A DNA stretch of 33,865 bases from Candidatus Moraniibacteriota bacterium (GTDB lineage Bacteria; Patescibacteriota; Minisyncoccia; Moranbacterales; UBA9337), in NCBI GenBank assembly GCA_003510795.1, contig DOKP01000084.1, positions 1 to 33,865 of the forward strand, given 5' to 3'. Positions 6,544 to 32,653 of this stretch are shown piece after piece (the stretch's first letter is position 1; each line of letters begins with the position of its first letter). A program made the translations under genes and the position numbers. Under the pieces are notes generated by a model that searched no databases, had not been told where the DNA came from, and saw nothing but the letters and a program-made list of their open reading frames with translations.

Positions 6544-6567
6544 TTTTTGTAATTATGCAAGTATAAA
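6544..6567. repeat. Intergenic repeat family B, copy 2
   Basis: A 24 of 24 match to 2590-2613. Confidence 0.85.
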
Positions 6568-6624: not shown

Positions 6625-6685
6625 CGATAAGTCATTCAAAGAAAGCGGTTCTCATTCTAATAAATTAGAATGAAACGACCTAGTT
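6625..6685. repeat. Intergenic repeat family A, copy 2
   Basis: It has the same three exact blocks as 1328-1389. The internal stem-loop has a different sequence (tcattcta-ataaat-tagaatga). Confidence 0.8.
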
Positions 6686-6765
6686 AGGTTTGTTCCTAGT
6701 CGGTTTTAAGCGACTAAGTGTACACCAATACTCCCTAGAAAGGAGGTGATTCGTGGGAGGAATTA

Positions 6766-7327: not shown

Positions 7328-8239
7328 TCATAGCCACGAATCCATATTCATCCCCTTTTCGTGGGCTTGCTTGGCCTCATCATCGCTTAAAATCCCCAGA
7401 TAATGCCTGCTAGTTGTTTGAATATCAGAATGACCCAATAATACTTGAATATGACCTAGACTGACACCTTTTTTCATTAAAATTGTGGAGAAACTATGAC
7501 GTATCGTATGGGCGGTGGTACTTTCAGTTAATCCTGCCAATCTGCGATATCTTCTAAAACTTTTCTGAGCATCATTCCTATCCCAGCGATTTGTCTTTCC
7601 TTCCGCTACAAAAATAAATTCTCCCTCATAGCCTCTCTTTTTGATATATTCACGAATATACTCTAACGACCATTCGGTAAAATATAGTTTTCTCTGTTTA
7701 TTGCCCTTGCCGATAATCAATGCTTCTTTTTTCTCCCAGTCTATATCGTTAATTTTTAAGTTTAAAGCCTCTCCTATTCTGCATCCACTTGAAATTAAAA
7801 CTGAGATAAAAGCCCTGAACCTCAAATCCCTCCCATTTCTTTTGCCAATAGAACTGAAAAAATGCATCAACTCTTCTTCAGTTAGATAATCCACTCTCCG
7901 TTTGGGAATTTTAGGTCTTTTTATCTTATCAAAATCCATAACCCGAAGATGCAATTCATTTTGACAGAATCTCAATAATTCTTTGATTACAGATAAATTA
8001 TGAGCTCTAGTTGTTGGTTTTAATTCTCTTAGCTTATATTCTCTTTTGAGTTTTTCAATACAATCCTCGTTTATTTCTGAAACATTCAAATCGCCAAGAA
8101 TATTCACAGTCCATTTAATAACCTTCCCATATTCATAAACAGAAGCAGATGCCATCTCTTTTTCTAGTTCACAATAGTTTAGAAATAATTTTCCAGCTTC
8201 ACTGAGTTTTATTAAGTTTTGTTTTTTAAAAAATAACAT
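7328..8239 (-). CDS. Tyrosine recombinase / phage-type integrase (Int1)
   Basis: SGCRIGEAL (Arg), HTIRHSF (HxxR) and LLGHSDIQTTSRHY (His, Tyr). It is 303 aa, the same length and architecture as the ORF at 32727..33638. Confidence 0.9.
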   Translation of the reverse strand: MLFFKKQNLIKLSEAGKLFLNYCELEKEMASASVYEYGKVIKWTVNILGDLNVSEINEDCIEKLKREYKLRELKPTTRAHNLSVIKELLRFCQNELHLRVMDFDKIKRPKIPKRRVDYLTEEELMHFFSSIGKRNGRDLRFRAFISVLISSGCRIGEALNLKINDIDWEKKEALIIGKGNKQRKLYFTEWSLEYIREYIKKRGYEGEFIFVAEGKTNRWDRNDAQKSFRRYRRLAGLTESTTAHTIRHSFSTILMKKGVSLGHIQVLLGHSDIQTTSRHYLGILSDDEAKQAHEKGMNMDSWL

Positions 8240-11643: not shown

Positions 11644-11892
11644 CTATTCCTCATCTGAATTATTTTCCAACTCTTTTTTTACATCATTAAATTCATTTTC
11701 AACTTCCTTAAGTCTAGCTCGGCTTAACTTGATGAGTTCTACTCCTTCTTTGACTTTTTCCAATCCTTTTTCAACATCAACCTCTTCTTGGTTATCAAAC
11801 CAATCGGAAATTGCTTCCAGTTTTTTTAATGATTCTGATAAATTTGAATTTTCCATATTTTTTAAGTTATTTATTAATAATTTTTTTAACAC
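11644..11892 (-). CDS. xseB: Exodeoxyribonuclease VII small subunit
   Basis: SESLKKLEAISDWFDNQEEVDVEKGLEKVKEGVELIKLSRARLKEVENEF follows the XseB helical-hairpin pattern. It overlaps the end of xseA. An alternative ATG lies at 11856. Confidence 0.65.
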   Translation of the reverse strand: MLKKLLINNLKNMENSNLSESLKKLEAISDWFDNQEEVDVEKGLEKVKEGVELIKLSRARLKEVENEFNDVKKELENNSDEE

Positions 11893-13357
11893 TAGATTCT
11901 ATTTCCCCATCGTTTATCTTGCCAATAATGACATCTCCTTCCTTAATTTGGTTAACTGACCTGACTACTTTTCCATCTACCGTAATAATGCTGTAACCTA
12001 ATTTCAATTGTCTTTCTGGACTATTTTGATTAATATTTTTCTCTATACTGGTCAAATTATTATTAGCTTGAATAAGCTTATCTTTAAATTTATCTATAAT
12101 TAATTCTTCAATTTTTTGAACCTTGTATTTTTCGTGTCTGATAGTATGACCAACATTAAGAATAAAGTCTTTTATAGATTGTTCATATTGCAAAAATTTT
12201 CCAATTATAAAAGAGTAAAAATCTTTTATCTGATTTGTCGCCTTCTCTAATTTATCCTTTTCAATTTGCATCATCTCCCTAAAATGCATATACATATTCT
12301 GCAAATAATAATCAATTTTATATGTAGCTTTTTCCCAAGAATTATTTAAAACTTGAGTAACTGCGGTGGGGGTTGATGCGGTTTTGTCAGCCACAAAAGA
12401 AATTAACGGAATATCTTTGTCGTGTCCAATACCACATAAAACTGGCACTGGAATCTTTAACATTTCCCTAATTAGAGTTTCATTGTTAAATGCTTGCAAG
12501 CTTTCCAAACTACCGCCACCCCTGATAATAACAAGCACATCAACTGGATTTTTTTGGAAGTATTTCAATGCACTTATTAAATCCTTTACTGCCATTATTC
12601 CCTCTACTCTAGAATCTACAAAAGTAATTTTATAACCGAATCTTCCTATATTATTTAAAAAATCATTAATCACTGCTCCATCTCGTGAGGTTATTAAACC
12701 AATGCTTTGAGGATAATCTGGGATTAATTTTTTTCTAGAATCTTCAAATAAGCCCTCATCTTTTAATTTCTTTTTCAACTCATCATATGCCTTTTTTAAT
12801 GCCCCTTCCCCAACTAGTTCAATAGTGCTTGTTCTGAAGGTAAATCTTCCATTCGGCTTATATATTTCTGAAAATCCTTGAATTGTTAGTTCCATTCCTT
12901 CCTCTATTTCAATTCCACACATCTTATAATCGTTCATCCACATAAAACAATCTAGGACACTCCCGTCATTTTTATCCTTCAATGAAAAATACAGTTGACC
13001 TTTTAAGTTGAAACTTGATACTTCCCCCTTTATCCTAGCTCCCGTATCGGATAATCTGGAGTTAACATCATCCAGATAACTACTAACAGAATATATTTTA
13101 TCCTCTTTTGAGCTTACTTCAACAAATGATTCGCTACCCAAACATTCATTAATAATTAATAAAACATCTTTGCCATATTTTTGAAATTTTTTCTCTCTAA
13201 TTCCTTTTATGGCAAGCAACTCATCTTTGGTTTTTGGTAAAAGAGTAGCCATAGCTTCAAGCGTCTTATTTTGGAACACTCTATAGAGTTCGCACATTTC
13301 CAAATCCGCTCTTTTTTGCCTCCAACTCTTCAATTTTGTTAATGCCTCTTGATTCAT
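11867..13357 (-). CDS. xseA: Exodeoxyribonuclease VII large subunit with an N-terminal HRDC-like extension
   Basis: OB-fold region GEVSSFNLKGQLYFSLKD. Catalytic region GLITSRDGAVINDF...IIRGGGSLESLQAFNNE...PVLCGIGHDKD. The first ~75 aa (LKSWRQKRADLEMCELYRVFQNKTLEAMATLLPKTKDELLAIKGIREKKFQKYG) look like HRDC. Confidence 0.8.
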   Translation of the reverse strand: MNQEALTKLKSWRQKRADLEMCELYRVFQNKTLEAMATLLPKTKDELLAIKGIREKKFQKYGKDVLLIINECLGSESFVEVSSKEDKIYSVSSYLDDVNSRLSDTGARIKGEVSSFNLKGQLYFSLKDKNDGSVLDCFMWMNDYKMCGIEIEEGMELTIQGFSEIYKPNGRFTFRTSTIELVGEGALKKAYDELKKKLKDEGLFEDSRKKLIPDYPQSIGLITSRDGAVINDFLNNIGRFGYKITFVDSRVEGIMAVKDLISALKYFQKNPVDVLVIIRGGGSLESLQAFNNETLIREMLKIPVPVLCGIGHDKDIPLISFVADKTASTPTAVTQVLNNSWEKATYKIDYYLQNMYMHFREMMQIEKDKLEKATNQIKDFYSFIIGKFLQYEQSIKDFILNVGHTIRHEKYKVQKIEELIIDKFKDKLIQANNNLTSIEKNINQNSPERQLKLGYSIITVDGKVVRSVNQIKEGDVIIGKINDGEIESSVKKIINK

Positions 13358-13519: not shown

Positions 13520-14287
13520 TTATTTAGCATCTCTATTATATTTCTCAATTTGAACTGATATTAACTTTATTCTATCTGCATCAAGTATATTTTTCTCATT
13601 TTTTAGAAATGATGGTAATGCTTTTTGGTTTAAAACCCAAACATCAGCACCTCTCGGCTGTGGCTCGATAAACCAATCTGGAAAAATAACCACTGGTCTC
13701 ACATCCATTTTTATTCCAGTTGAGTCTGAAATATATTCCTGAAGCCAATATGCCTGTGATTTTGCTTGAAATATAGTGCTTCTATCGATACCCAGCCCAT
13801 CAATTTTCATATTATCACCATCACGTTTAATCTTTTGAATCCCACTGAATTTACTCCTCACTTTTGTCTCAATAGTAAATGCTCCTGCAGGGCCAACAAT
13901 TATATGGTCAATATTAAACATTCCGTCAACAACTATGTCGTGAAACACTTTATACCCCACCTCTCTCATTTGCTCCAAACTTTGACCAACTATTTTTTCT
14001 CCATCTCTTCCTAGTTTGATATTTTTAAATTTTGTCCAAAGCTTTATGATCTTTGCCATAAAATACACCACAGCAACCAGTGCGATAATAGTCCAGATTA
14101 TTGGACTTGGGGGTTTGTTAAAAATTTTATCCGTCCATTCAATCAATGCAACAATAAAAAATACGAATATTATAAAAATATATGATATTAAATCATACAC
14201 AATATCCCTCATTTTTTCATCCAGTGACTGACCTGGGTTACGCAAAGGTCTATTTTTTAGTGGAGAATGCTTTTTATTTTCTAACAT
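13520..14287 (-). CDS. Membrane-anchored NERD (nuclease-related) domain protein
   Basis: Two N-terminal TM segments, then GRDGEKIVGQSLEQMREVGYKVFHDIVVDGMFNIDHIIVGPAGAFTIETK, the typical NERD core. Confidence 0.75.
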   Translation of the reverse strand: MLENKKHSPLKNRPLRNPGQSLDEKMRDIVYDLISYIFIIFVFFIVALIEWTDKIFNKPPSPIIWTIIALVAVVYFMAKIIKLWTKFKNIKLGRDGEKIVGQSLEQMREVGYKVFHDIVVDGMFNIDHIIVGPAGAFTIETKVRSKFSGIQKIKRDGDNMKIDGLGIDRSTIFQAKSQAYWLQEYISDSTGIKMDVRPVVIFPDWFIEPQPRGADVWVLNQKALPSFLKNEKNILDADRIKLISVQIEKYNRDAK

Positions 14288-14299
14288 TTATATTTTTTA

Positions 14300-14662
14300 T
14301 TAATTTAAAAGTATTTGTAAATCATTTTTAAATTTTTTAGGAGACTTCGCTAAAGACAAAGCTATAAAATCACTTATCTTATCCTCTTTTTTTATTTTTT
14401 TAAGTATTCTTAATATAAATTTTTCATGTGAGATTCCACAACCTTTTAAATAAAAAATAACATAACCCATAAAGCATAGAGCATCTAGCCATTTTTTTTC
14501 TTTAGCACAAATGATTGCCATTTGATAATACATCATATACCAGCTATCATTATTCGATTTTTTAAGTTCTAGCAGTGAAAAATTTGCTTCACTCCAAGCT
14601 TTATCATATTCTTTTCTTTTAATAAGCTCTTCGATTTTATCTAGGTATACAATAAAACTCAT
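14300..14662 (-). CDS. Small helical-repeat (TPR-like?) hypothetical protein
   Basis: 120 aa, all-helical in appearance (KEYDKAWSEANFSLLEL...YYQMAIICAKEKKWLDAL). It lies 12 nt upstream of the NERD gene. Confidence 0.45.
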   Translation of the reverse strand: MSFIVYLDKIEELIKRKEYDKAWSEANFSLLELKKSNNDSWYMMYYQMAIICAKEKKWLDALCFMGYVIFYLKGCGISHEKFILRILKKIKKEDKISDFIALSLAKSPKKFKNDLQILLN

Positions 14663-14687
14663 AGTTTTAATATTAATTTATACAATA

Positions 14688-15998
14688 TCATTCTTCTATT
14701 ACTCCCTCTGGCAATGTCAGACTCTTAACTTCTGGCAAAGCAGAGGCACCTATAATTCCCTGCAAATCTCCATACATGCCTGCCGTATTACTCACTACTC
14801 TCTCTATCTCCTGTTCCCTTTTCTTCCAAATCCTTTGAATAGCTCTTTTTTCTGAATCTAAATCACTTTTCATTCCAGTAAAAGCCAACACGATATTTTC
14901 AATTCTATTTTTAAATTGACTACCTGCTAAATACTCATAAAGCATTTCCATCTTTTCATTCTTACCTAAAGAAGATTGTTTTACCTGAAATACATCATAT
15001 AATGCCAATCTAAGAGCTGAAATGAGTGGTAAGGCATGAGTGTATTCGCAAACCCACACACCATCAACATTGGCAAAATAATTAACACCTTCTGGCATAA
15101 TCCTACTGACCAAAATGCACACATCCGCCTTCGCTATTCCCTGGTCTTCTTTTGCTTTTTTTAGCCAATCATTACTCCAATTTTTAGTATTCTTAGATTC
15201 CCACAAAACTTTACCGCACTTTATTCCAAATTGTGAGTTAACTGTTTGTATCAAGTCACCGCCCCTTATTCCAGTTGGGACATCCTCGATGATATCGATG
15301 GGGAAATTATTTTTTATCATTTGCATCAATTCATTTTCTTGGACATCTCCTTGAATTTGCATTGAGCCCTGCTCACTTTTTCTTTTTAAATCTTCAATGG
15401 TTTTTCTCATTTGTTCCATTTGCTTTTCTTTCTCTAATAGCTTCATTCTATGGCTTTCATCTGCCTCCTTTTTAACCTCTTCTGTTATTTTCTCACGCTC
15501 TTCATCCATTTTTCTTTGGAGCTCCAAATCAAGATTCTTCTTTTGAACTTCAACATCTCTCATTTTTTTTCTTAACTCAAGCTCCTTCTGTTCAGCTTTT
15601 TCTAATTTCTCTCCCTGCTCCTTGTTTTGATTTTCTAAATCCTTCAATTTCAAAGCTACATCTTCTTGAATTTTTTGCTCTGCCTTTTTTATTAATTCAC
15701 CTTTCTCCTTTTCAACCTCATGAGCAATTTTATTTTTTAGCCCCTCTCTTTCTTCTTCTAATTTACTTCGCTCTTCATCAGTTCTTTTTTTGACCTCATC
15801 TTCAATAGATTGCTTATCACTCTCTACTTTTTTCTTTTCTTTATTCAAATCTTCCTTTTCTTTTGTTATCTCATCAAGTATTTTTCTATTATCCTCATCT
15901 AGCTGACTTTTCACTTTCTCCTCAATTTGAGCAGAAAGAGTTTCGGTTAATGGAATTTTAGTTTTACATTTAGGGCAAACTATTGCTTGTTCTGTCAT
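14688..15998 (-). CDS. DUF2130-like protein: N-terminal zinc ribbon, long E/K coiled coil, C-terminal PD-(D/E)xK-like domain
   Basis: CPKCKTKIPL at the N-terminus, about 200 aa of coiled coil, then GGDLIQTV...GKVLWESKNTKNWSNDWLKKAKEDQ...ADVCILVS, which gives a D...ExK arrangement. Confidence 0.55.
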   Translation of the reverse strand: MTEQAIVCPKCKTKIPLTETLSAQIEEKVKSQLDEDNRKILDEITKEKEDLNKEKKKVESDKQSIEDEVKKRTDEERSKLEEEREGLKNKIAHEVEKEKGELIKKAEQKIQEDVALKLKDLENQNKEQGEKLEKAEQKELELRKKMRDVEVQKKNLDLELQRKMDEEREKITEEVKKEADESHRMKLLEKEKQMEQMRKTIEDLKRKSEQGSMQIQGDVQENELMQMIKNNFPIDIIEDVPTGIRGGDLIQTVNSQFGIKCGKVLWESKNTKNWSNDWLKKAKEDQGIAKADVCILVSRIMPEGVNYFANVDGVWVCEYTHALPLISALRLALYDVFQVKQSSLGKNEKMEMLYEYLAGSQFKNRIENIVLAFTGMKSDLDSEKRAIQRIWKKREQEIERVVSNTAGMYGDLQGIIGASALPEVKSLTLPEGVIEE

Positions 15999-16013
15999 AT
16001 TTTTTACAAATTA

Positions 16014-16035
16014 AAAATTAACTCATAATCTCAAA
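16014..16035. repeat. 22-nt exact direct repeat, copy 1 (intergenic)
   Basis: aaaaattaactcataatctcaa is identical to 18175-18196. Confidence 0.9.
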
Positions 16036-16048
16036 TAATTTTATTTCT

Positions 16049-16345
16049 TTAAAGATGTTTTTTGGCTACAGCAAATAATGCTCTCTCGATAATTGGAACT
16101 ATAACCAGGTTGCCAGTAATAAAGCCAATCACCAAGAGCATCAGTAACAATTTCCAGTTATAAAAAATAAGAAACAATGCTAGACCGAAAAATGACAACA
16201 CTGCGATATTTAACAAAAATTCAATAATGATATTTTTGTATATGAGAGGAATTTCTCCTATGCCCGCCTTTGCATATCTGCCATGTATCATCATAAGTCC
16301 CAGTAATAACAAAAAAGCGATTGAAATAAATATGTTAGTAATCAT
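16049..16345 (-). CDS. Small polytopic membrane protein (about 3 TM)
   Basis: 98 aa, almost entirely hydrophobic segments. Confidence 0.55.
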   Translation of the reverse strand: MITNIFISIAFLLLLGLMMIHGRYAKAGIGEIPLIYKNIIIEFLLNIAVLSFFGLALFLIFYNWKLLLMLLVIGFITGNLVIVPIIERALFAVAKKHL

Positions 16346-16373
16346 ATGATTATTCTCTAATTATATATACTAT

Positions 16374-17225
16374 CTATTCTCCTTTTTCCAACTCTGCTAA
16401 ACTTTTTCCATTTTCATCTTTCCATTTGTCCCGTCCAGTGTTAGCATAACTTAATATAATATTTGAAGCGGAACTTGGACTGTTGAAAATATAATCCCTT
16501 ATAAATACATAGCTATTTTTGTTTACCGAATCCAGTTCAATAATTTTCTCTTCAATTAAAAAATTCTTCATTTTTTTGCTGCTTGCCAATGTCGGTTCCG
16601 AAATAGAAGCAGTTGAGCCTTGTAACACTTCAAACCCCCCATCCACCTGTCTTCCCTTAGCATATACTCCAGCTCCTTTGCAAAATAATATGTCGCCTGA
16701 AGGTTCATTTTTTTCATTCACTTTTTCTCCATTTAAAATTGGCGAAAGTATCGGATAACCCAGGGCCGACATTAAAATTGAAAGATTGGAAAGATATTCA
16801 TTGGCTTCCGCTTCTTCTGCTTCGTTTAATTTTCTTGGTTTAGCATTGTTTTTATTTTCCAAAACACATCTCTTTTCCTTAACTGCCATTTCCAAACATT
16901 TATTTTCCAGATACTCAATGTTACCGCCAAAAAAAGCGATAACTATTTGCCAAAAATCCTTTTTATAATCGTGGTCAGTCAATCGTTCTTTCAAATTATT
17001 GGCTTTGCCTATATACACACGATGGAGTCCGCTTTCTTCTGGTTCGAGTGACAGAAGAAAATATACTGCTGGACTAAAAAATTCTTCTCGGCTAAAAAAC
17101 TCCCTTAACTTGTTTCTGGGGACTGAAACAGCTTTACCGCTCCAATTACTTATCTCAATGGTTTTCATCCCCATCGGATTTCCTTCAGCTAAAAAAATCT
17201 TTATTGTTTTTGGTGTGCTTAGCAT
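16374..17225 (-). CDS. GIY-YIG-like N-terminal domain plus DUF4357 C-terminal domain protein
   Basis: VYFLL...RVYIGKANNLKERLTDH is GIY-YIG-like. The C-terminus GGFEVLQGS...FIRDYIFNSPSSASNIILSYANTGRDKWKDENGKSLAEL is DUF4357-like. The ATG at 17225 is preferred over the TTG at 17261. Confidence 0.7.
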   Translation of the reverse strand: MLSTPKTIKIFLAEGNPMGMKTIEISNWSGKAVSVPRNKLREFFSREEFFSPAVYFLLSLEPEESGLHRVYIGKANNLKERLTDHDYKKDFWQIVIAFFGGNIEYLENKCLEMAVKEKRCVLENKNNAKPRKLNEAEEAEANEYLSNLSILMSALGYPILSPILNGEKVNEKNEPSGDILFCKGAGVYAKGRQVDGGFEVLQGSTASISEPTLASSKKMKNFLIEEKIIELDSVNKNSYVFIRDYIFNSPSSASNIILSYANTGRDKWKDENGKSLAELEKGE

Positions 17226-17229
17226 AGTT

Positions 17230-17448
17230 TTAATTATTTTTCGTGACCGAATATGGAACAACTATAATCATTTTTTCGCATCTCGGACAAGATAAATCAA
17301 AATTAATTGTTGATTCTTCGTCGTAGTCTTCTCTTAAAGCATCTTTCGGCAACCCACCCCAGGGGCAAACGGGACATTTAATTATTTCGTTCTTATCATA
17401 TTCTTCATATGGGACGACTTTTGCTTGAACATCTTTTTCTTCAAACAT
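17230..17448 (-). CDS. Small zinc-ribbon protein
   Basis: 72 aa with CPVC...CPRC. Its stop is 4 nt before the next ATG. Confidence 0.5.
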   Translation of the reverse strand: MFEEKDVQAKVVPYEEYDKNEIIKCPVCPWGGLPKDALREDYDEESTINFDLSCPRCEKMIIVVPYSVTKNN

Positions 17449-17488
17449 ATGTTTATCATTAAAACTATTTTTAAAATTTAAATCATAA

Positions 17489-18160
17489 TTAATAATTACT
17501 AATTATTTTTACATCTTGACCAATTTCCACTATTTCTGAACTTTCTGGAGCACTGCTTCTATAAATCTTTGCATATTCGTCACTAGTCTCCTTGGCTAAT
17601 TCTACAACCCTTTCCAAGTAATCAACGCTACTATCTCTTTCAATATAAAATATATTTTTGCCATTATTCAAGGCTTCTTTGATTTTTATCTCCACATCTT
17701 CATATGATAAATTTTCAGTTATGGAAGTCTCTGGCTCATACTTCAGATCATTTGCAATGTGCGGAGTTATAACTGCAAATCCTGCTGGGGGGAATTGTTC
17801 CAAAATCAATCTAAAGCGGTCATCCCGAAGTGAATTATCCAAAACATAAAAAATACGAATTCCTCGTTGGCTCATTTCCCAAAATAATCTATGCAAAACA
17901 ATTGATATGTATCCATTTGTATGGACTCCCACCTCATTCCATTTCATAGCAGACCTGTAAAGTTGGTCAGTCATCTCTGCTATAAGTTTTTTATTTTCAA
18001 CAGCATCGTTACTTAAATTTGCGACAACATCTTTAGAAAATTTCTCCAAAGATTCGGCAATCTCCATTGCTTCTTCTGGGCTTGAATTTTTCATGTTACC
18101 AATGAATTCATCCATATTTAAGATTAAATCCATCACATTTTTTGGTTCAATTTTATTCAT
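17489..18160 (-). CDS. Hypothetical protein
   Basis: 223 aa with no motif I recognise. A candidate TTGAGA-N18-TAATAT promoter lies in the res 3' end, with the -10 only 6 nt from the ATG. Confidence 0.5.
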   Translation of the reverse strand: MNKIEPKNVMDLILNMDEFIGNMKNSSPEEAMEIAESLEKFSKDVVANLSNDAVENKKLIAEMTDQLYRSAMKWNEVGVHTNGYISIVLHRLFWEMSQRGIRIFYVLDNSLRDDRFRLILEQFPPAGFAVITPHIANDLKYEPETSITENLSYEDVEIKIKEALNNGKNIFYIERDSSVDYLERVVELAKETSDEYAKIYRSSAPESSEIVEIGQDVKIISNY

Positions 18161-18174
18161 TATGATATATTAAA

Positions 18175-18196
18175 AAAAATTAACTCATAATCTCAA
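18175..18196. repeat. 22-nt exact direct repeat, copy 2 (covers the res stop codon and the last codons)
   Basis: Identical to 16014-16035. Confidence 0.9.
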
Positions 18197-20924
18197 GTAC
18201 CTTTTCAACTCTTTTAAATTTAACGTCATTCAATTGTTTGAAATGTTTCTCTCCACAATAAATCTTCTGCTCCTCACTTTTTCTAAGTTCTCCTTTTGAT
18301 TTTGTTTCCGCTACAAAGTAAATCTTTTTATCATTTTCCAATACTATCGCCCAGTCTGGATTATATGAACCAATTGGTGTTTGAATCTTAAACCAATAAG
18401 GTAATTTAAAATAAAATTTAACTTCTTCAATTGACTCTAAATCCTTAGCAAACTGACCTTCTACACTGGAATGGGAATCTACTATGATATGGTCGTAAAG
18501 TGTTTTTTCTTCATTTTGAACCTTAACTACATTATCTAGATAGCTATGCAATTCATCATTTTCAAATAACTCCATCGCATAAAAACTATTTTCACCTTTC
18601 AATTTCTCGTATTTAATACCATCAATCATTAATTTTTCCAGTCCTTGTTTGATAATATTAGTAGCAAAATCCATAAACTGCTGTGGATTTTTATCTATCT
18701 CGTTACCCTTGCCCGACTCCTGAATAATTTTTAATATCGTATCTTTAGTAAGTTTTGTTTTATTTTGAATATAGCCTAAAATATCTGGAATCATTTTATT
18801 ATTCGTACCATATTCTATTTTCTTCTCACTCACGCTGGAAAGCATAGTCGTAACGCCTTCACTTGTAATGCCGACCTTCGCCTTAAGACTGACAATTTTT
18901 GGAGCGATTATGTCTACTTTAGCAAGCTCTGCTCCAACTAACTTAACCAGCTCTTCAGTTTTGTACTCCACTCGATATTGTGTCTTGTGTTTTATTTTTT
19001 CCCATAGCTCTTTAAAATTTTCATTTAGTTTATATGCTTTTGTAAGCCTTACTTTCACTTCTCTTCTCTTATTTTTAATCCGTCCACCAAACTCAACACT
19101 GCAATCATCCTCAATTTCAGTCTGAAGTTTTTTGGCAAAATCCTCATATCTCTCATTGGCAATAACAGTTAACACATTTATGTTATCATCAAAGATTCTT
19201 TGTCCATCTTGATTAACAGGGAGACGAAGTCCTCTTCCTATTTCTTGACGTTTTTTAATTTCGCTTTGTGTTTCGTTAAGTGTGCAAATTTGAAACACAT
19301 TAGGATTATCCCATCCCTCACGAAGAGCAGAATGTGAAAAGATAAAGCGAAGTGGCTCTTTGGCTGATAATAATCGTTCTTTATCTTTCATAATCAACGA
19401 ATATGTATCATTATCCAAAATACTATCACCTTTCGTATCTTTTAATTGTCCTTTTTTGTCTTGTGAAAAATATCCGCCATGTACTTCTTCAGCTGAATTG
19501 AAAGTTATGCCAGCAAAAATAGGATTAACTTTTACCTCATTAAATATCTCTTCAAACCACTCGGCAATCTTTCCCTTTTTAACTATGCTATCTGCATACT
19601 CTCTGTAATTTGCTACTCTATCGATAAAAAATAATGATAGTACCTTTATGCCCTTATCTTTAAGCCTCTTTTCTTTTTCGAAATGATTAACGATAGTCTG
19701 CCTTATTTGAAGCTTCATTATGTCTTCCTTGAATCCTCCCCAGCTTTCACCCACAAAGATTGTTTTTCCATTGGAAAATGTAATTGACTGAGCTGTTATA
19801 TCTACCGCGTCAACGACATAATCTTTATATATTTCTCGCTCACCTGATAGCTTATGTAAATCACACTCAGTTCTGGTTCTAGATGATTTTTTGATAGTTA
19901 CAGTTTTTCTTTTAATTCCAGTCTTTTCATTCACATCAATTTTAAGCTTCACGCAAATAGCATTTTTCTGAGATGCCACTGATTCCAACTCTATATAAGG
20001 ATCATTTTGATTGTTTTCCTCTAAAACCGAATCCACTTCAATCTTTTTTACCAATCCCAAATCATAAGCTCTTACTGGGTCTAATTTATAAATTAAATTA
20101 TAATGATGTTTGTGTGTAGCTGAATAACGAAGAGTACAAAGAGGATGAAGATTGGCAATTGCTCGCTTTCTGATTTCCGTTTCCATATTTTGCGGTTCAT
20201 CCACAATTACAATAGGCTTTACTGCTTGGATATATTCTATCGGCACGCCCCAATCACTTTTTTGATATATAATATTGCCTTTCTTCTTCTCTTGGCTAAA
20301 TTTAGCAAAAGAATCAATATTAATAACCACTATTTGAATTGAGTTGTTTGTAGCAAAGTTTTTAAGCAATCCCCTCTTTTTAGGGTCATATACATAAAAG
20401 TCCATTTCTGGATTATCATAAAGAACATTAAAATGCTCCTTAGTAATTTCTAAGTTTTTTATAACACCTTCTTTGATGGCAATGCTGGGAACAACGATAA
20501 TAAATTTTTTAAATCCGTATTTTTTATTTAACTCATGAATGGTTCGTAAGTATACATAAGTCTTTCCAGTTCCAGTTTCCATTTCAATCGAAAAATTTAA
20601 ACCATCTTTGAGTTTTTGCGAAGATTCACCATATCTTCTTTCTCCATATTTAAAAGTTCCAAATCTAGTGCTTAAGTTTTCAATGTCGGACTTTTCTAAT
20701 TTATTTTGCTCTTGAATTCTGTGAAGATTTTTAATTATTTCAGCTTCCTTAACTAACAAATTATTCCCTACTACAAATCCGCCATCGATAATCATCTGAC
20801 CGCTATCTCTTTTTATCTCCAATTCAAAATCTCCCTTGCTTAGAGGTTGACCATTAAATAAACCCACAACTGAGTTTATCGCGTCTATTTGGTATTGTTG
20901 ATTTGAATCAAATTGTAGCTTCAT
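18180..20924 (-). CDS. res: Type III restriction enzyme, Res subunit (SF2 helicase plus C-terminal PD-(D/E)xK nuclease)
   Basis: METGTGKTYVY (motif I), IVIVDEPQNM (motif II), QEIGRGLRL (motif VI) and NPDWAIV...FVAETKS (PD...ExK). Confidence 0.85.
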   Translation of the reverse strand: MKLQFDSNQQYQIDAINSVVGLFNGQPLSKGDFELEIKRDSGQMIIDGGFVVGNNLLVKEAEIIKNLHRIQEQNKLEKSDIENLSTRFGTFKYGERRYGESSQKLKDGLNFSIEMETGTGKTYVYLRTIHELNKKYGFKKFIIVVPSIAIKEGVIKNLEITKEHFNVLYDNPEMDFYVYDPKKRGLLKNFATNNSIQIVVINIDSFAKFSQEKKKGNIIYQKSDWGVPIEYIQAVKPIVIVDEPQNMETEIRKRAIANLHPLCTLRYSATHKHHYNLIYKLDPVRAYDLGLVKKIEVDSVLEENNQNDPYIELESVASQKNAICVKLKIDVNEKTGIKRKTVTIKKSSRTRTECDLHKLSGEREIYKDYVVDAVDITAQSITFSNGKTIFVGESWGGFKEDIMKLQIRQTIVNHFEKEKRLKDKGIKVLSLFFIDRVANYREYADSIVKKGKIAEWFEEIFNEVKVNPIFAGITFNSAEEVHGGYFSQDKKGQLKDTKGDSILDNDTYSLIMKDKERLLSAKEPLRFIFSHSALREGWDNPNVFQICTLNETQSEIKKRQEIGRGLRLPVNQDGQRIFDDNINVLTVIANERYEDFAKKLQTEIEDDCSVEFGGRIKNKRREVKVRLTKAYKLNENFKELWEKIKHKTQYRVEYKTEELVKLVGAELAKVDIIAPKIVSLKAKVGITSEGVTTMLSSVSEKKIEYGTNNKMIPDILGYIQNKTKLTKDTILKIIQESGKGNEIDKNPQQFMDFATNIIKQGLEKLMIDGIKYEKLKGENSFYAMELFENDELHSYLDNVVKVQNEEKTLYDHIIVDSHSSVEGQFAKDLESIEEVKFYFKLPYWFKIQTPIGSYNPDWAIVLENDKKIYFVAETKSKGELRKSEEQKIYCGEKHFKQLNDVKFKRVEKVLEIMS

Positions 20925-20930
20925 AGAAGT

Positions 20931-21938
20931 CTATCTCAAAATTGTTATTTTTCTATCTAAATTAAGTTTTGGCTTCTTTGTTTTTTTATCTATTATTAAT
21001 TCTATATTTTCTGATATCCAGCCAGATTCTATTTCCTCCTCAAAACTTGATATTTTAGATAAATTTTCAAATCCTCGTTTGTACTCTATTTTCATACCTA
21101 GTGCTATTCCCAATTCTATAAAAATAAGATAAGATTCTTCCGTTTCATCATAAATATAAAAGTTTTCAATATCTATAAAATCTATATCAAAATCGATGAC
21201 TTCATATTCATCATATTTAGTACCACAATCGCTATCAGTATTCTTATCAAACACATCGTTTGCTATTAATTCGTAAATATGGTTACGGACAGCGTCACTT
21301 TCAATAAAAGTGTCAAGATACTCTCCATCTAAAAATTCAAGCTTTTTTCCATGCATTGATAAAAATTCTTCCAGAGAATTAAAAAACTCTATTGATAATT
21401 CTCTAGATTTTAAGTCAGCCAAAAGCTCCTCTTTGAGAACTGAACTTCCAAAAGCTTTCTTGTCGTTAGAAATAAAACAAATTTTCTCACTCTTCGGAAT
21501 ACTCTTAGCTATTTCCAAAACTGCAAACCATATTAATGAATCCCTAAAGCCTCTACCAGTGGAGTCAAAAGGGGTTTCTTTTTTAATAGCTCTCTTTATT
21601 ATCTCAGGATAAGAAATGTCTAATTTTTCCAAAGCCACTTCATCTATAATATCCTTATATATATTTATATGATTTTCTATATATTTTTCAAACTCTTTAA
21701 TAAAGCTTGAGCTATCAATAAAATTTGGTTTTCTAGCAAAAACTTTTACAGAAGAATTATGAGCTAGAACAAATTTTCCAACTTCTTCTTTATATTTTTG
21801 CAACAACTCATCTTTAACAACGGAAATTAAAAATAACTTAGAGCTAGTTTTTGGCAAGTAATCGAACAAACCAATAAACTTAGGAGAATTAAAAAAGTAA
21901 TTGTTGTAATATATATTTGTATCTAAAATCACATTCAT
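20931..21938 (-). CDS. PIN-like (DUF4935-type) domain protein inserted between mod and res
   Basis: MNVILDTNIYYNNYFFNSPKF...LISVVKDEL resembles the N-terminus of PIN-like DUF4935 proteins. The ORF track extends to a TTG at 21959. The stop is 6 nt before the res ATG. Confidence 0.55.
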   Translation of the reverse strand: MNVILDTNIYYNNYFFNSPKFIGLFDYLPKTSSKLFLISVVKDELLQKYKEEVGKFVLAHNSSVKVFARKPNFIDSSSFIKEFEKYIENHINIYKDIIDEVALEKLDISYPEIIKRAIKKETPFDSTGRGFRDSLIWFAVLEIAKSIPKSEKICFISNDKKAFGSSVLKEELLADLKSRELSIEFFNSLEEFLSMHGKKLEFLDGEYLDTFIESDAVRNHIYELIANDVFDKNTDSDCGTKYDEYEVIDFDIDFIDIENFYIYDETEESYLIFIELGIALGMKIEYKRGFENLSKISSFEEEIESGWISENIELIIDKKTKKPKLNLDRKITILR

Positions 21939-22037
21939 AATAATATTGAGTATATTCAATAAATAATTTAATCAGGCTAAACTAATAGTTTTCGTTCTTC
22001 CCTAAAACAGTTAAAATTCTTACTTGTAAACATGTTT

Positions 22038-23948
22038 TTATATAACTTTAAAATCAATCTTCTCCTGCTCCATCTGGAGGGAAATATTGGTTTTAAGCTG
22101 GTCATTATTTTGAAAACACCCATCTAGACAGATAAACTTTTCTGGTTTTGATTTTTGAATTTCCTCTGCCATCTCTTCAGTTATTTTTTTCCCAAGATAC
22201 ACGATTAGTTTTCCACCGTCCAATAAGTAATATTTATCATCTGCGAATTTTTTTTCTTCAATTGAGATATTCAAGTCTAATCCGCTTTTTAGAATTAACT
22301 CAAATAAGATATTTTCTTCTTTACTTCCACTCTTAATATTATCTACAAAATCCGCCATATTGCCTAATAGACTTTCAGAATTTTCAAATTTACCCTGCCA
22401 AATTTTGAAGTTAGATTTATCTAATTTTAAAGACTTGAATCCCAAATCAATATTGCTTTTATTTTCCTTTCCAATTTTATCTCCAGCTCGTCTAATTCTC
22501 TCTTTTCCAATCTCCGCAATATTTTTATATCCTGCTTTATATGCCTCGCTTCCTTCATCACAAAGTTCTGGAAGCTGAACACAAATCCACTTTCTGTCCC
22601 CCTTGTCTTTTGCGTTCTGCTCCATAACTGCGTGGGCGGTAGTTCCAGAGCCAGCAAAAAAATCCGCTATTAAATCAGAGTTTTTGGAAGCAATACTTAT
22701 TAAATGCCGAATTAAATCTGTTGGCTTTGGATATGAAAATGGCATTTCATTATTAAATAATTTCTTTAATTCTTTTTTTCCATCACCTGTCGATGCTATA
22801 TTTACCAACAGTGATGTTGGTATTCTTCCATATGACAATAAATTGCCGTATTCATCTTTAATTATTTCCTCTTTCTTTTCATTTATATATTGTTTATACA
22901 TAACCCTCCATTCTTTTTCACCATTCTCTGGTTCGAAAAAAACTATTCTATTATTTTCAGTTCTCCAATCAAAACGATTCTTATCGCATCTCCACCTGTG
23001 CTCTCTGCCATTTAAAATTGTTCCATCTGGACAAGTTATGTCGTAATGTAATCCGGGCCTATCGCCAATACTAAAGTCATTTAAATTTCTCAGTCGGAAT
23101 TTTCCTCGCGTTTTAATATATTCATCTTCCAATACATAGCCCTTTAACATATCTTGAGATGGTAGTAAGTTGTAGAAAAAACTATTTTCTAAATTTTTAG
23201 TGTAACACAATATATATTCGTGAGTTATTGCTATGTACTTATTGTCATTTTGGGTTCCTGCACCTTTTTGCCATACTAATTGAGCTACAAAATTTTCTTC
23301 TCCAAATATCTCATCCATTATTGTTCTAAGATTTTTCACTTCATTATCATCAATAGACACAAAAATAACCCCATCTTGCTTAAGAAGATTTCTAGCTAAA
23401 AATAATCTCGGATACATCATGTTGAGCCAATTGGAATGATAGTGCCCACTGTCTTTTGCATTTCTTGAGAGCCCATCCACTCGAAGAGTGTTTCCAATAT
23501 CATCTTTTTCTCCAATTGATTCTAAATATTCATCTCTATTCTCTTGAAATTTGTCGTTATAGATAAAATCATTCCCAGTATTGTAAGGTGGGTCTATATA
23601 AATCATCTTTATTTTTCCATAATAAGAACGCTGAAGAACCTTGAGAACTTCAAGGTTATCGCCCTCTATGAAAAGATTTTGTGTCTGGTCAAAATCAAAC
23701 GATTCATCCTTGGCTGGTTTTAATGTTGCGGTAGTTTGCTCCTGAATTACTTTAAAGCAATTATTTTTACCAGCCCAACTCAATCCATATCTTTCATTAC
23801 TATCATCCACTTCCTCACCTAGCGTTTGTTTAAGCTTTTTACAGTCAATCTTTCCTTCTGAAAAAATCTCTGGCAAATCCGATTTAAGAAAGCTTAATAT
23901 TTCTTCTTGTTTATTTAAAGATGAGCCCTCAATCTTATTTTTATCCAT
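22038..23948 (-). CDS. mod: Type III R-M DNA methyltransferase, Mod subunit (beta-class N6A/N4C)
   Basis: IYIDPPYNTGNDF (motif IV) precedes DFFAGSGTTAHAV (motif I), with a variable region between them. Confidence 0.85.
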   Translation of the reverse strand: MDKNKIEGSSLNKQEEILSFLKSDLPEIFSEGKIDCKKLKQTLGEEVDDSNERYGLSWAGKNNCFKVIQEQTTATLKPAKDESFDFDQTQNLFIEGDNLEVLKVLQRSYYGKIKMIYIDPPYNTGNDFIYNDKFQENRDEYLESIGEKDDIGNTLRVDGLSRNAKDSGHYHSNWLNMMYPRLFLARNLLKQDGVIFVSIDDNEVKNLRTIMDEIFGEENFVAQLVWQKGAGTQNDNKYIAITHEYILCYTKNLENSFFYNLLPSQDMLKGYVLEDEYIKTRGKFRLRNLNDFSIGDRPGLHYDITCPDGTILNGREHRWRCDKNRFDWRTENNRIVFFEPENGEKEWRVMYKQYINEKKEEIIKDEYGNLLSYGRIPTSLLVNIASTGDGKKELKKLFNNEMPFSYPKPTDLIRHLISIASKNSDLIADFFAGSGTTAHAVMEQNAKDKGDRKWICVQLPELCDEGSEAYKAGYKNIAEIGKERIRRAGDKIGKENKSNIDLGFKSLKLDKSNFKIWQGKFENSESLLGNMADFVDNIKSGSKEENILFELILKSGLDLNISIEEKKFADDKYYLLDGGKLIVYLGKKITEEMAEEIQKSKPEKFICLDGCFQNNDQLKTNISLQMEQEKIDFKVI

Positions 23949-25676: not shown

Positions 25677-26537
25677 TCAGTTTATCTCCGCCAGCCTCAC
25701 CTCCTTTCTCAATTTTGATTTGTCTATATGTAAATATCTTTCAGTTGTTGAAATATTTTTATGCCCTGCTAGAATCTGAATTGTTTTTAAATTTACACCC
25801 TTCTCTAACAGTCTCGAGCAAAAACTATGCCGTATGCTATGCACTGAAATATTTGGCTTTTTTATTCCAGCCAATTTTAAATACTTCTGAATAAGCATAC
25901 CTACTCTTCTTTGAGTAATTCTTTTTTTAAAACTGCTAAAAAACAATGGCTCGTCCATCTCCTTATTTTTATATGCCTGCTTAATTTTTCTTGCCAGCTT
26001 TGCGTTTATCGGAATGCTTTGTTTCTGTCCGCCTTTTCTTTTAATAATAATCGTCTTGGCTTTTGCATCAATATCGCCTGCATCCAAATTAACCAGTTCT
26101 GAAATGCGAATACCAGTCTCAATGAAAATAGTCACTATTAACTCATTTCTTTTTTGATGTTTAGATTTATCTTTTTTAATAATTCCAATTAGTTTTTTTA
26201 ATTCAGCCTCGGTCAAATAACTCGGTTCTTTTTCTTTAACTTTAGGCATCGCAATATTTTTGACTGGATTATTCTTTATCAAATTCTCGCTTTCTAAAAA
26301 TTGAAAGAAATTCTTGAGTGAAGTAAGTTTTCTCCTTCTCGTAATTGGCTGGTTATTTTTCTCCGCTAAAAAGCAAAGGAACTCACGAATGTGAGCCCTT
26401 GCCAATTTGTTAAATGATGACTTTTTAATGAATTTGACGAATTCCGATAAGTCTCGAGTGTAAATCTCAATAGTTCTTTCGCTTAAGACTTTTTCTATGC
26501 GAAGATAATCCAAATATTGTTTTATGTATTTTTGCAT
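25677..26537 (-). CDS. Tyrosine recombinase, XerC/D-like (Int2)
   Basis: ETGIRISEL, HSIRHSF and LAGHKNISTTERYLH. Confidence 0.9.
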   Translation of the reverse strand: MQKYIKQYLDYLRIEKVLSERTIEIYTRDLSEFVKFIKKSSFNKLARAHIREFLCFLAEKNNQPITRRRKLTSLKNFFQFLESENLIKNNPVKNIAMPKVKEKEPSYLTEAELKKLIGIIKKDKSKHQKRNELIVTIFIETGIRISELVNLDAGDIDAKAKTIIIKRKGGQKQSIPINAKLARKIKQAYKNKEMDEPLFFSSFKKRITQRRVGMLIQKYLKLAGIKKPNISVHSIRHSFCSRLLEKGVNLKTIQILAGHKNISTTERYLHIDKSKLRKEVRLAEIN

Positions 26538-26539
26538 AA

Positions 26540-26594
26540 TATGTGTCTCTTTACTCGTTGTGACACATAATAGCTCTTAGCTAGATTAAGTCAA
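26540..26594 (-). promoter_or_regulatory. Promoter of Int2 with an overlapping inverted repeat
   Basis: On the minus strand, TTGACT (26589-26594), a 16-nt spacer and TATTAT (26567-26572). The inverted repeat tatgtgtc-N14-gacacata (26540-26569) overlaps the -10 and ends 3 nt from the ATG. Confidence 0.5.
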
Positions 26595-27060
26595 ATGCCT
26601 CAATTTCGGCTAGAATTCGCCTAGTAATTCCAGCATTGTTTGCTTCCAGTAACCTGTTTCTATCTGAGGAAATTTTTGAGACTAAGCCTTTTTTCATATC
26701 TACCACGATATAAAAATCCATTCCGCTGTCAAAATAAAATTTACTATCAATAAATCTCACTACAGCTTTTTCATTAATTGCTTCCAATAAATCAAATACC
26801 AAAAGCGTTTGCAATTTTCCAAAATCGCAAGGATGGCATTCGATATCCACCAGATTCTCATTGGGATAAAAATTTATTTCGCAAGAAACTATAATCTTGC
26901 CTTCTTCGTTGCTAATGCGAAACGATACAATATCCTTAGCTTCTTGGATAATTTTATGATACAAATGTTTATACTCGGAATTTTTCTTTTTCGCATTTAA
27001 TAAATTATGCACAAATTTATCTTGCGTCACTGAATTTAAAAACTTAATTTTTATGGTCAT
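26581..27060 (-). CDS. Hypothetical protein
   Basis: A 159-aa ORF in the phage-like module. No motif recognised. Confidence 0.5.
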   Translation of the reverse strand: MTIKIKFLNSVTQDKFVHNLLNAKKKNSEYKHLYHKIIQEAKDIVSFRISNEEGKIIVSCEINFYPNENLVDIECHPCDFGKLQTLLVFDLLEAINEKAVVRFIDSKFYFDSGMDFYIVVDMKKGLVSKISSDRNRLLEANNAGITRRILAEIEAFDLI

Positions 27061-27185
27061 ATTTGTTATTTTATTTCAAATTAAAAGGATACATAACATA
27101 CATTATGCGAACATTCTATAAATTAGATAAATCACCAATGTGGATACGCTGTAGCCATAGATGTTTATGAATAACTCGCTCATAG

Positions 27186-28718
27186 TTATTGATATTTTCT
27201 CCACTCTTCTAATTCTCTGAGAGTGGGGAAATTGTTTTTAGGATTAATAATCTCTATTTTCTCTTTACTTTTAACTCTTGCTAAATTAGGCTTTTTTTCT
27301 TCTCTTAACTGTTCTTGAAATTTATCAATGCTGGGTGCATCAGTAATAATGAATCCCGCTTCGATTTTTCTCACTCCTGATATCTGCATCAACGCCACTG
27401 ACAGAGCCATGGCGTGGTCTGAATACTGCGAGCTGGGATGGTCAAAGCGATAACCGTAACTTTTTTGAAAAAGATTCAAAGATAACAGTTCTCTTTCCAG
27501 TTGCTTGTGCGGAAAAAATTTCACCAATCCGTTATGGATAAAATAATATAAGTTACGACTTAACTTCTCCACATTGGAACCAGTAAAAGTAAATTCTTCA
27601 ATCTTGCAATATCGCTTCAATCTTTCAATTGTTCCTTTTAAATTCCACGGGTCAACTATAATATTAAGCTTTGGGAAATTTTTGGAAGCGATAAGCATAT
27701 CTTCTTCAATATCGACAATTTTTACTGGATTATTTCTATCCCCTGACCATGTCCTGATATCATCCACAATCACAACGCCCGACTCTTTATCTTGGTGAAG
27801 TATCACTGAAACTGTGCGGTCTTTGACTAAGCCAAGGTCACATCCATAATAATATTCGTTACTTTCCTCACCTTTGAACTTTGGTTTAAGAAATTCATCT
27901 CGGCATTGCATCACATCCTCTCTGGTAAAAAAACTATTTTCTCCAGCTGTCCATTTATTTTCCCAAAATCTCTGAAACACTGCTGGCGGAAGTTCTCGTC
28001 TTCGCTCTTCTATAAATTCTTTGGTTATCCAACTTACTTGCGGTTTATGCGACCAATGAAAATACATTTTTGGATTTTCCTTATTTAATCCTTTTTCATA
28101 TAGTTCAAAAAGGGGAGTGACGGTATTCGTTCCCGCGTAAGTCACAATGAATCGAAGGGGTTGTTTTCTCGTTGGAGAAAATTGCAGAGCATCCAACAAA
28201 TCTCTATTCTTTTGACTCCAAATTTCATCCCCTATAACTACCTGCGGATTTAAGCCGTGTGCCGAGAAGCTATCTGAACTCAATACCTTATAAATATTGC
28301 CTGTCGAAGGGACAACAATTGAATCACGATAAATTTTTACGCTGTCTAACAATATCGGATTTCTCTCAATGGCTTTTTTGGTTTTACTCCAAATAATAGA
28401 AGCTTGGTCTTTATCTGATGCGATAGAATAAATTTCATTTGGCTCGTCAAAGATAGGGTCGCAAAATAGCATATACAGAGCTACGCCCGAAGCTAAACTG
28501 GATTTGCCCGACTTCTTAATCATTCCAATAAGAGCATCGTTATATATCCTAAGCCCATTTTTATCTTTGGTTTGAAATATATCATTTAGAATTTTTTTCT
28601 GAATCGGCTCCAATACTATCGCCCTACCACTTTCCAAAAAATATTGCTCTTCTAAAAAAACGCATATATCATTTTGATACTCAATAAGTTTCTCCGTCGT
28701 TATCGGTTGCATCTTCAT
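27186..28718 (-). CDS. Phage terminase large subunit
   Basis: P-loop GMIKKSGKSS, Walker B VVIGDEIW, a size of about 510 aa, and a position directly after a small-terminase-like gene. Confidence 0.75.
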   Translation of the reverse strand: MKMQPITTEKLIEYQNDICVFLEEQYFLESGRAIVLEPIQKKILNDIFQTKDKNGLRIYNDALIGMIKKSGKSSLASGVALYMLFCDPIFDEPNEIYSIASDKDQASIIWSKTKKAIERNPILLDSVKIYRDSIVVPSTGNIYKVLSSDSFSAHGLNPQVVIGDEIWSQKNRDLLDALQFSPTRKQPLRFIVTYAGTNTVTPLFELYEKGLNKENPKMYFHWSHKPQVSWITKEFIEERRRELPPAVFQRFWENKWTAGENSFFTREDVMQCRDEFLKPKFKGEESNEYYYGCDLGLVKDRTVSVILHQDKESGVVIVDDIRTWSGDRNNPVKIVDIEEDMLIASKNFPKLNIIVDPWNLKGTIERLKRYCKIEEFTFTGSNVEKLSRNLYYFIHNGLVKFFPHKQLERELLSLNLFQKSYGYRFDHPSSQYSDHAMALSVALMQISGVRKIEAGFIITDAPSIDKFQEQLREEKKPNLARVKSKEKIEIINPKNNFPTLRELEEWRKYQ

Positions 28719-29289: not shown

Positions 29290-29292
29290 TTT

Positions 29293-29925: not shown

Positions 29926-29926
29926 A

Positions 29927-32643: not shown

Positions 32644-32653
32644 CAAGATTATT

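Follow-up and report, generated by a model that had tools for sequence, protein, structure and literature searches.

We analysed a stretch of 33,865 nt (contig DOKP01000084.1, called the window from here on) from a Candidatus Moraniibacteriota bacterium of a groundwater metagenome from the Rifle aquifer, and considered the origin of an exact 22-nt direct repeat that lies behind the genes of a predicted type III restriction–modification (R-M) system. Among named organisms, it is most closely related to Candidatus Moranbacteria/Moraniibacteriota, members of the candidate phyla radiation (CPR) of bacteria. All genes of this region are on the minus strand and are given here in minus-strand order. 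The gene mod (22038..23948) encodes a type III methyltransferase of 636 aa (PADLOC MTase_III, E = 2e-204; Pfam N6_N4_Mtase), and is followed by a gene for a PIN_12-domain protein (20931..21938) and by res (18180..20924), which encodes a restriction subunit of 914 aa (PADLOC REase_III, E = 2e-285; Pfam ResIII and RE_endonuc). By these profile matches the adjacent mod and res genes are predicted to form a type III R-M system. Four open reading frames (ORFs) come next, coding for proteins of 223 aa (17489..18160), 72 aa (17230..17448), 283 aa (16374..17225, with GIY-YIG and DUF4357 assignments) and 98 aa (16049..16345). Beyond them lie a gene for a DUF2130 protein of 436 aa (14688..15998) and, as the right-hand anchor of the variable stretch described below, a 120-aa gene and a NERD-domain gene (together 13520..14662).

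The repeat has the sequence AAAAATTAACTCATAATCTCAA on the plus strand, which reads TTGAGATTATGAGTTAATTTTT on the coding strand. It occurs twice in the window, at 18175-18196 (copy A) and at 16013-16034 (copy B), and the distance between the copies is 2,162 bp. An initial annotation of this DNA had noticed the repeat and had placed copy B at 16014-16035, which is one base off; its list of four ORFs between the copies, and its GIY-YIG/DUF4357 and DUF2130 assignments, were confirmed. Copy A is the genuine 3′ end of res, as the initial annotation had recognized: it comprises the last 2 nt of a Leu codon, the codons for Glu-Ile-Met-Ser, the TAA stop and TTTTT, such that the protein ends in …LEIMS*. 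Copy B is non-coding and lies between the stop codon of the 98-aa gene and the start of the DUF2130 gene, in the same minus-strand orientation. There is no third copy of the 22-mer in the window, even when up to three mismatches are allowed.

The window is AT-rich (~33% G+C), which could favour an origin of the repeat by chance. In 100 dinucleotide-preserving shuffles of the window, however, the 22-mer did not occur once. It is the third-longest exact direct repeat of the window, and the longest such repeats in 30 order-1 Markov simulations measured 15-18 nt. Across this region, both repeat copies included, six independent assemblies (from Logan, JGI and ENA and representing several samples) match the window at 100% identity, and the 22-mer is therefore not an assembly artefact. 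The shuffles, simulations and assemblies together refute a chance match or an artefact as the origin of the repeat, to which we assign virtually no probability.

The distribution of the 22-mer provides information about the origin of copy B. The sequence tracks one group of res alleles, those ending in …LEIMS*: it is identical in a related JGI metagenome contig (L129), carries three mismatches in a second relative (L130), and is replaced in other alleles by quite different ends. Since the 22-mer belongs to a single group of res alleles, copy B is taken to be a fragment of a res terminus of that type. The initial annotation had proposed such a relic, and the proposal is borne out by the identity of copy B to the resident and L129 res termini and by analogous relics, described below, one of which follows the 223-aa gene of the window and another of which precedes an OLD gene in another relative (L010). 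The full 22-mer is absent from GTDB genomes. A 20-mer of it is absent from viral contigs and has four matches among JGI metagenome contigs, of which L129 alone is related; L126 and L127 are GC-rich and L128 belongs to an unrelated AT-rich genome, and these three matches look like chance. The likeness between copies A and B is limited to the repeat. Over 25-80 nt upstream it is no greater than in shuffles (p ~0.5), the 14 nt downstream are unrelated to each other, and a longer res relic upstream of copy B, sought by comparison with shuffles, was not significant.

Both copies are followed by a start codon, that of the 223-aa gene at 18160 after copy A and that of the DUF2130 gene at 15998 after copy B, and the spacing from the end of the copy to the ATG is exactly 14 nt in each case. 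This coincidence would be expected if the 22-mer were a cis element under selection before two genes, either a promoter −35 or operator sequence or a signal for translation reinitiation or processing. Neither gene has an obvious Shine–Dalgarno sequence, copy A gives a TTGAGA-18-TAATAT arrangement that is placed for a near-leaderless start, and copy B is perfectly conserved between unrelated flanks. However, promoter-like matches in the window number 51, compared with 47.6 expected from shuffles, copy B does not score and has no acceptable −10 sequence, and a promoter and terminator scan of the window returned only background. These results agree with the view of the initial annotation that promoter function fails to explain the repeat. 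Furthermore, copy A is coding DNA of res and varies with the res allele, the 223-aa gene of L010 and the GIY-YIG gene of another relative (L139) stand without the element, and the narrow distribution of the 20-mer and the 22-mer given above also argues against a cis element. We consider such an element unlikely; the identical 14-nt spacing and the perfect copy B, both of which are otherwise unexplained, keep it alive at low probability.

We then compared the gene order of the window with that of its relatives. The flanks of the locus (window 29265-25008 and 9959-8347, carrying TerL…integrase and Macro/370-aa genes) are 94-97% identical in nucleotide sequence to L130 and L133. Between these conserved flanks the interior differs gene by gene, as seen in L009-L011, L129, L130, L138 and L139. 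In the L129-type strain, which is represented by four assemblies from three samples (L129, which is the same as L155, and L153, L154 and L156), the res product has 83% protein identity to that of the window and its gene ends in the identical 22-mer. There, res is followed directly by a homologue of the 72-aa gene, and the 223-aa gene is absent between them. In Moranbacteria GW2011_GWE1_35_17 (L130-L135), res is 90% identical and the order is res, a 70-aa homologue of the 72-aa gene, a 275-aa gene, HATPase_c_3 and NERD. The spacer that leads from res to the 72-aa gene is conserved in L129, L153-L156 and L130-L135.

In the window this spacer is found at a different place. The 40 nt between the stop codon of the 223-aa gene and the start of the 72-aa gene align to the res-to-72-aa junction of L129 and L130, and the alignment reaches the last res codons. 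Right after the 223-aa stop, at 17473..17489 on the minus strand, ATTATGATTTAAATTTT is a degenerate copy, with two mismatches, of the res terminus ATTATGAGTTAATTTTT, and thus a third copy of the res 3′ end (termed A′). Given A′ and the retained spacer, the 223-aa gene is therefore best explained as having been inserted separately, between res and the 72-aa gene, with duplication of ~17 nt of the res end.

All four L129-type contigs end within or just after the 70/72-aa gene. A single sample, ERZ909587, holds window-type, L129-type and L130-type contigs, and L129 shares its JGI sample with one window-type contig. The breaks are consistent with branching of the assembly graph where co-occurring strains diverge.

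A second junction was revealed by L009, which is a genome of Moraniibacteriota, and by the Logan contigs L010 and L011. These have only four blocks in common with the window: the 223-aa gene (95% nucleotide identity), the 72-aa gene (91%), the 120-aa, NERD and adjacent 51-aa genes (92%, extending to window position 13358 in L009 and L010) and Macro (92%). Their order is Res′ (996 aa)–210aa–224aa–OLD–72aa–120aa–NERD, and the GIY-YIG, 98-aa and DUF2130 genes are all absent. The homology of the 223-aa gene starts 11 nt before its ATG and stops at its stop codon. In the window, an exact 12-mer, ATTAAAACTATG, occurs only twice, both times on the minus strand: where the 72-aa stop meets the GIY-YIG start (17223..17234) and at the junction of the DUF2130 and 120-aa genes (14660..14671). 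The two occurrences bracket the block GIY-YIG–98aa–B–DUF2130. In L010, ATTAAAACTATG joins the 72-aa gene straight to the 120-aa gene, and this block is therefore one that can be present or absent at the 72aa|120aa junction. Upstream of OLD, L010 also has a relic of ~75 nt, pseudo-coding and derived from the 3′ end of a res gene (HFE*LDDVKFKRVEEVIQIFKEAV*), which indicates that pieces of the res terminus are commonly left at junctions in this family of islands.

A sequence in L136 (10748-10790) may be of a similar kind. After the stop codon of a res allele that ends in …LQMFGSA*, GGAGATTATGAATATTATGAGG resembles the core of the 22-mer, GAGATTATGAG, and may have remained from a res terminus that was replaced.

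The initial annotation had drawn a different conclusion from the repeat, namely that res was once located directly before the DUF2130 gene and that a four-gene cassette (223aa–72aa–GIY-YIG–98aa) was inserted across the 22-mer as one transferable unit, which can excise and which would constitute a single, self-contained functional system. This model has the merit that exactly four ORFs lie between the copies of an exact 22-nt direct repeat and that copy B is a genuine relic of the res end; moreover, homology of 22 nt suffices for rare recombination. The arrangements found in relatives argue otherwise. The 72-aa gene, which lies inside the supposed cassette together with its res-side spacer, is the usual neighbour of res, and the 223-aa gene alone is lacking in L129 and L130 and resides in another context in L009-L012 and L144, the more distant homologues (L012 and L144) being found alone in unrelated surroundings. 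In L139 and L140, where res is 78% identical, the GIY-YIG/DUF4357 gene follows res directly and precedes HATPase_c_3 and Macro, and in L139 it is unaccompanied by the 98-aa, 72-aa or 223-aa genes. In L138, res is followed directly by xseA–xseB–GmrSD. Finally, the GIY-YIG, 98-aa and DUF2130 genes are jointly missing in L010, as a block that straddles the edge of the proposed cassette.

Recombination across the 22-mer would predict a res|DUF2130 junction of the sequence …GGTACTTGAGATTATGAGTTAATTTTTAATTTGTAAAAAATATGACAG… and a 98aa|223aa circle junction of the sequence …AAATTATTTGAGATTATGAGTTAATTTTTTTTAATATATCATAATG…. The exact-protein contexts of the 223-aa, DUF2130 and res products revealed only the arrangement of the window itself and no deletion junction, a scan of JGI metagenome contigs with the 20-mer found no res|DUF2130 junction, and no assembly contained one. 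The 80 res loci (≤62% identity) and 32 DUF2130 loci (≤53%) obtained from GTDB showed no association of res with DUF2130 and no interval genes nearby. Nor were the four genes seen together elsewhere in any search, whether of protein homologue contexts, metagenome contigs or phage and plasmid collections, and the latter collections held no match to the interval. The cassette model is thus largely contradicted, including by the scars inside the interval, and we regard it as quite improbable.

Another explanation retains a special role for the res 3′ end, which would be the site-specific capture site of one of the three Xer-like tyrosine recombinases of the window and would have received serial cassettes in the manner of an integron or an array of dif modules. 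Each of the three copies of the res end (A, A′ and B) is located just upstream of a gene, the L010 relic likewise precedes OLD, all of these junctions fall just after the T-run behind the res stop, and the three recombinases are nearby. As in integron arrays, the units are one-directional, tightly packed and mostly single genes, with a repeat between some of them. In contrast to integrons, there is no IntI-type integrase: the three recombinases score 101.6, 88.1 and 57.8 bits, compared with a cut-off of 265 for TIGR02249, and their best matches are Xer-like and also below cut-off. No attC sites (imperfect palindromes of at least ~57 nt) were detected; the spacers of the array, at 4-50 nt, are too short for them, and the junctions have no palindromic structure in common. 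A search for 28-bp dif-like sites (11-6-11, as in IMEX and pdif modules) returned only AT-rich, low-complexity palindromes near background, none of them common to the junctions, and the 22-mer itself has no dyad symmetry. In addition, the repeat is the 3′ end of the neighbouring gene, most module junctions carry no res relic, the duplicated lengths are unequal (12, ~17 and 22 nt), and the GIY-YIG…DUF2130 block was inserted at the 72aa|120aa junction rather than at the res end. Site-specific capture by one of these recombinases is, in our view, rather improbable.

Other mobile architectures were considered in the same way. Transposons are not indicated, as the four ORFs have no transposase domain, the repeat listing of the window has no terminal inverted repeats, and the flanking direct repeats of 12, ~17 and 22 nt are variable and too long for a target-site duplication. 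An element with attL and attR ends is not indicated either, since no recombinase is encoded between the copies and no contig has the empty res|DUF2130 junction. With Campbell-type integration and short-repeat deletion the locus shares a direct repeat that flanks a segment and has one copy in the 3′ end of a gene, such that recombination would remove exactly this segment while res stayed intact. It differs in that the segment is composite, encodes no integrase, and has no excised or empty form among the sequences found. Domain and profile searches of the ORFs detected no recombinase or transposase within the interval, a result that supports the lack of specialized machinery.

Given the repeat, its identity to the end of res, and the mosaic structure and further scars of the locus, we infer that the stretch behind mod–PIN–res is probably a hypervariable island of defence genes and that the 22-mer is a passive recombination scar and not a working part. 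Co-occurring strains would exchange single genes or small blocks, the breakpoints falling at gene boundaries, and copy B would be a short piece of a res 3′ end that either stayed behind or was brought along as a block moved in between a res gene and DUF2130. Most simply, the DUF2130 gene, or a block ending with the 98-aa gene, would once have abutted such a res, either in this lineage or in a donor. At least two to three separate events would then have assembled the interval between the copies. In one, the 223-aa gene would have come to separate res from the 72-aa gene that usually adjoins it, with the duplication of the res end that is represented by A and A′. In another, the GIY-YIG–98aa–B–DUF2130 block would have been gained or lost at the 72aa|120aa junction, where the exact 12-mer flanks it. 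Copy B would stem from an event that took place earlier, in this genome or in that of a donor. Short-homology or illegitimate recombination between co-occurring strains would account for these changes, and could proceed either through single-crossover integration of circularized fragments or through an illegitimate junction combined with homologous exchange in conserved anchors. Direct repeats of 22 nt at this distance could occasionally mediate deletion, and nothing suggests a programmed reaction.

Several points weigh against this interpretation. None of the relatives recovered has a res|DUF2130 junction, and it is the scar alone that would record the past adjacency of these genes. Taken as a bare 16-mer with up to two mismatches, A′ is weak, as the expectation is 0.45 such matches per window; what would make it convincing is where it lies and that it is contiguous with the conserved res-to-72-aa spacer. 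Copy B is perfect whereas A′ has two mismatches, and copies A and B keep the same distance to the ATG, which could point to selection on the sequence and not to neutral decay. All of the close relatives derive from a handful of groundwater metagenomes.

It is also conceivable, although unlikely, that the stop region of res (TAA and the T-run) is a preferred landing site at which defence genes were captured serially, with ~17-22 nt duplicated each time. If so, A′, B and the L010 relic would record successive insertions, and the locus would represent a recombinase-light, integron-like way in which CPR bacteria accumulate defence genes behind a restriction operon.

The interpretation of the locus as a hypervariable island with passive scars places it among systems already known. 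Defence islands, and hotspots of variable content that lie between conserved flanking genes, have been described within the pan-genome of E. coli (PMC10121019) and in P2/P4 prophage and satellite genomes (PMC9122126), and genomic islands that carry R-M systems have been reported in Patescibacteria (PMC12455944). The present locus fits this pattern: relatives have the same locus with conserved flanks, differing content and an enrichment of defence genes, and the repeat is a real but ordinary by-product. Its conserved anchors are the 284-aa gene and the mod side on the left, and the NERD, Macro, 370-aa and integrase genes on the right. Between them are strain-specific sets of known and candidate defence genes, whose variants coexist in one population, and TerS, TerL, ParB, a Dam-type methylase and the three tyrosine recombinases are located next to them. 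The defence genes are those for type III R-M, PDC-S14, NERD, AbiJ/Abi_C and PIN_12 in the window, and OLD, HATPase_c_3 and GmrSD at the same locus in relatives. Judged by its predicted genes, the composition of the window is that of a defence island beside mobile-element genes. Unlike the hotspots cited, the locus varies at the resolution of single genes, with breakpoints at start and stop codons, lies directly behind (and inside) the type III R-M operon of a CPR bacterium, and preserves short target-derived direct repeats (12-22 nt) at several junctions. Somewhat unusual features are the turnover of single genes directly behind a type III operon, the preservation of scars, and the presence of another variable slot, which lies between mod and res.

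This second slot, which is itself hypervariable, spans 20931-21959 and is seen between the mod and res genes of orthologous type III operons (L130, L153, L136, L138, L139 and L141). In the window it is occupied by the PIN_12 gene, and in relatives by a 217-aa gene, a 259-aa gene, an AAA_15 ATPase gene (481 aa), a DUF8370/DUF8371 gene (493 aa) or two to three small ORFs.

The genomes of lambdoid and other phages are modular mosaics in which recombination occurs at gene boundaries or at short conserved junction sequences. The island resembles them in that its homology blocks are bounded within a few bases of ORF ends, modules of mixed ancestry lie side by side, and short junction sequences recur. 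It differs in being a cellular (or satellite-like) defence island and in having duplicated scars of the 3′ end of the upstream gene.

An exact repeat that brackets four ORFs does not define a functional system here, and the four genes are therefore not to be treated as an obligate unit. The modules are better viewed singly: a PDC-S14-like GIY-YIG/DUF4357 protein that is a putative nuclease, a 223-aa protein with a confidently modelled but unmatched fold, and a 72-aa protein that is the usual companion of res. The locus shows with unusual clarity, in one instance inside a single sample, how defence genes are turned over one at a time in nature among co-occurring strains of an uncultivated CPR bacterium. 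Its short scars preserve part of that history, and such scars could help to reconstruct how defence islands are assembled where mobile-element machinery is not evident.

The proteins of the interval and the DUF2130 protein were examined individually. The 283-aa protein matches the profile (PDLC04925) of PDC-S14, a candidate single-gene defence system of PADLOC, with E = 1.3e-80 over residues 4-280, which is the full length, and an anti-phage role is predicted from this match. Its C-terminus matches Pfam DUF4357 (E = 5.6e-14), and its GIY-YIG match is below threshold (17.1 bits, compared with a cut-off of 22.6). The GIY-YIG relatives in GTDB, at ≤35% identity, are uninformative and are found without the other three interval genes. 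The DUF2130 protein has an N-terminal coiled coil and a C-terminal domain that is placed in the PD-(D/E)XK superfamily, in which DUF2130 is listed (PMC3424549).

For the 223-aa protein there was no match in Pfam, PADLOC or PHROG and no sequence match in the PDB. Its AlphaFold model (pLDDT 89, pTM 0.87) has an N-terminal helical bundle followed by an α/β domain, for which a Foldseek search of the PDB gave no fold match at E < 0.001; the best match, to P-loop kinase- or SRP-GTPase-like folds, is not significant (E = 0.025, TM ~0.2-0.3). Only 19 homologues were found, which are placed in contexts other than that of the window, and the gene behaves as a stand-alone module in defence-type neighbourhoods of CPR and other metagenomic contigs, of which the 95%-identical copy in L009-L011 is an example. 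The 72-aa protein, which has a single cluster of homologues, contains two Cys pairs (CPVC…CPRC) and by eye appears to be a zinc ribbon. The 98-aa protein is hydrophobic, probably spans the membrane, and has no family match. Judged by their independent distribution, none of the 223-aa, 283-aa and DUF2130 proteins needs the others.

The remainder of the window, again in minus-strand order, starts with an integrase gene, genes for a Dam-type methylase, ParB_N, TerS and TerL, a gene for an Xer-like recombinase, and genes of 151 and 284 aa. The mod, PIN_12 and res genes and the genes behind them follow, through the 51-aa gene next to NERD. The series ends with xseA, xseB and AbiJ/Abi_C, then Macro, a 370-aa gene and a gene for an Xer-like recombinase, and finally two Fic genes. 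Scans of the whole window with Rfam and for tRNA genes gave no match. The TerS, TerL, ParB_N, Dam-type methylase and three Xer-like tyrosine recombinase genes are distributed over 25677-31027, 7328-8239 and 32727-33638, and recognizable phage structural genes are absent. The island may sit on a satellite-like or degraded prophage element. At 11644-13357, inside the island, xseA, whose product has an N-terminal HRDC domain, and xseB are found together, and in L138 (9767-11492) the pair lies between res and GmrSD; the association of exonuclease VII genes with the island is odd and recurrent.

Other repeats are present elsewhere in the window. An exact 24-nt direct repeat, TTTTTGTAATTATGCAAGTATAAA, at 2590-2613 and 6544-6567 brackets ~3.95 kb of mostly plus-strand genes (for an M23 peptidase, a PKD-domain protein and a PsbP-like protein) together with a Fic gene. 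The G+C fraction of this stretch is 0.39-0.40, compared with ~0.33, and it may be another inserted segment. An intergenic element of ~60 nt (CGATAAGTCATTCAAAG…GCGGTTCTCA…AATGAAACGACCTAGTT) that matches neither Rfam nor tRNA models is present in two copies, at 1328-1390 and 6625-6686. Lastly, a 27-nt exact repeat with a period of 24 nt forms a tandem array at 32113-32163, inside a 321-aa ORF (31681-32646).

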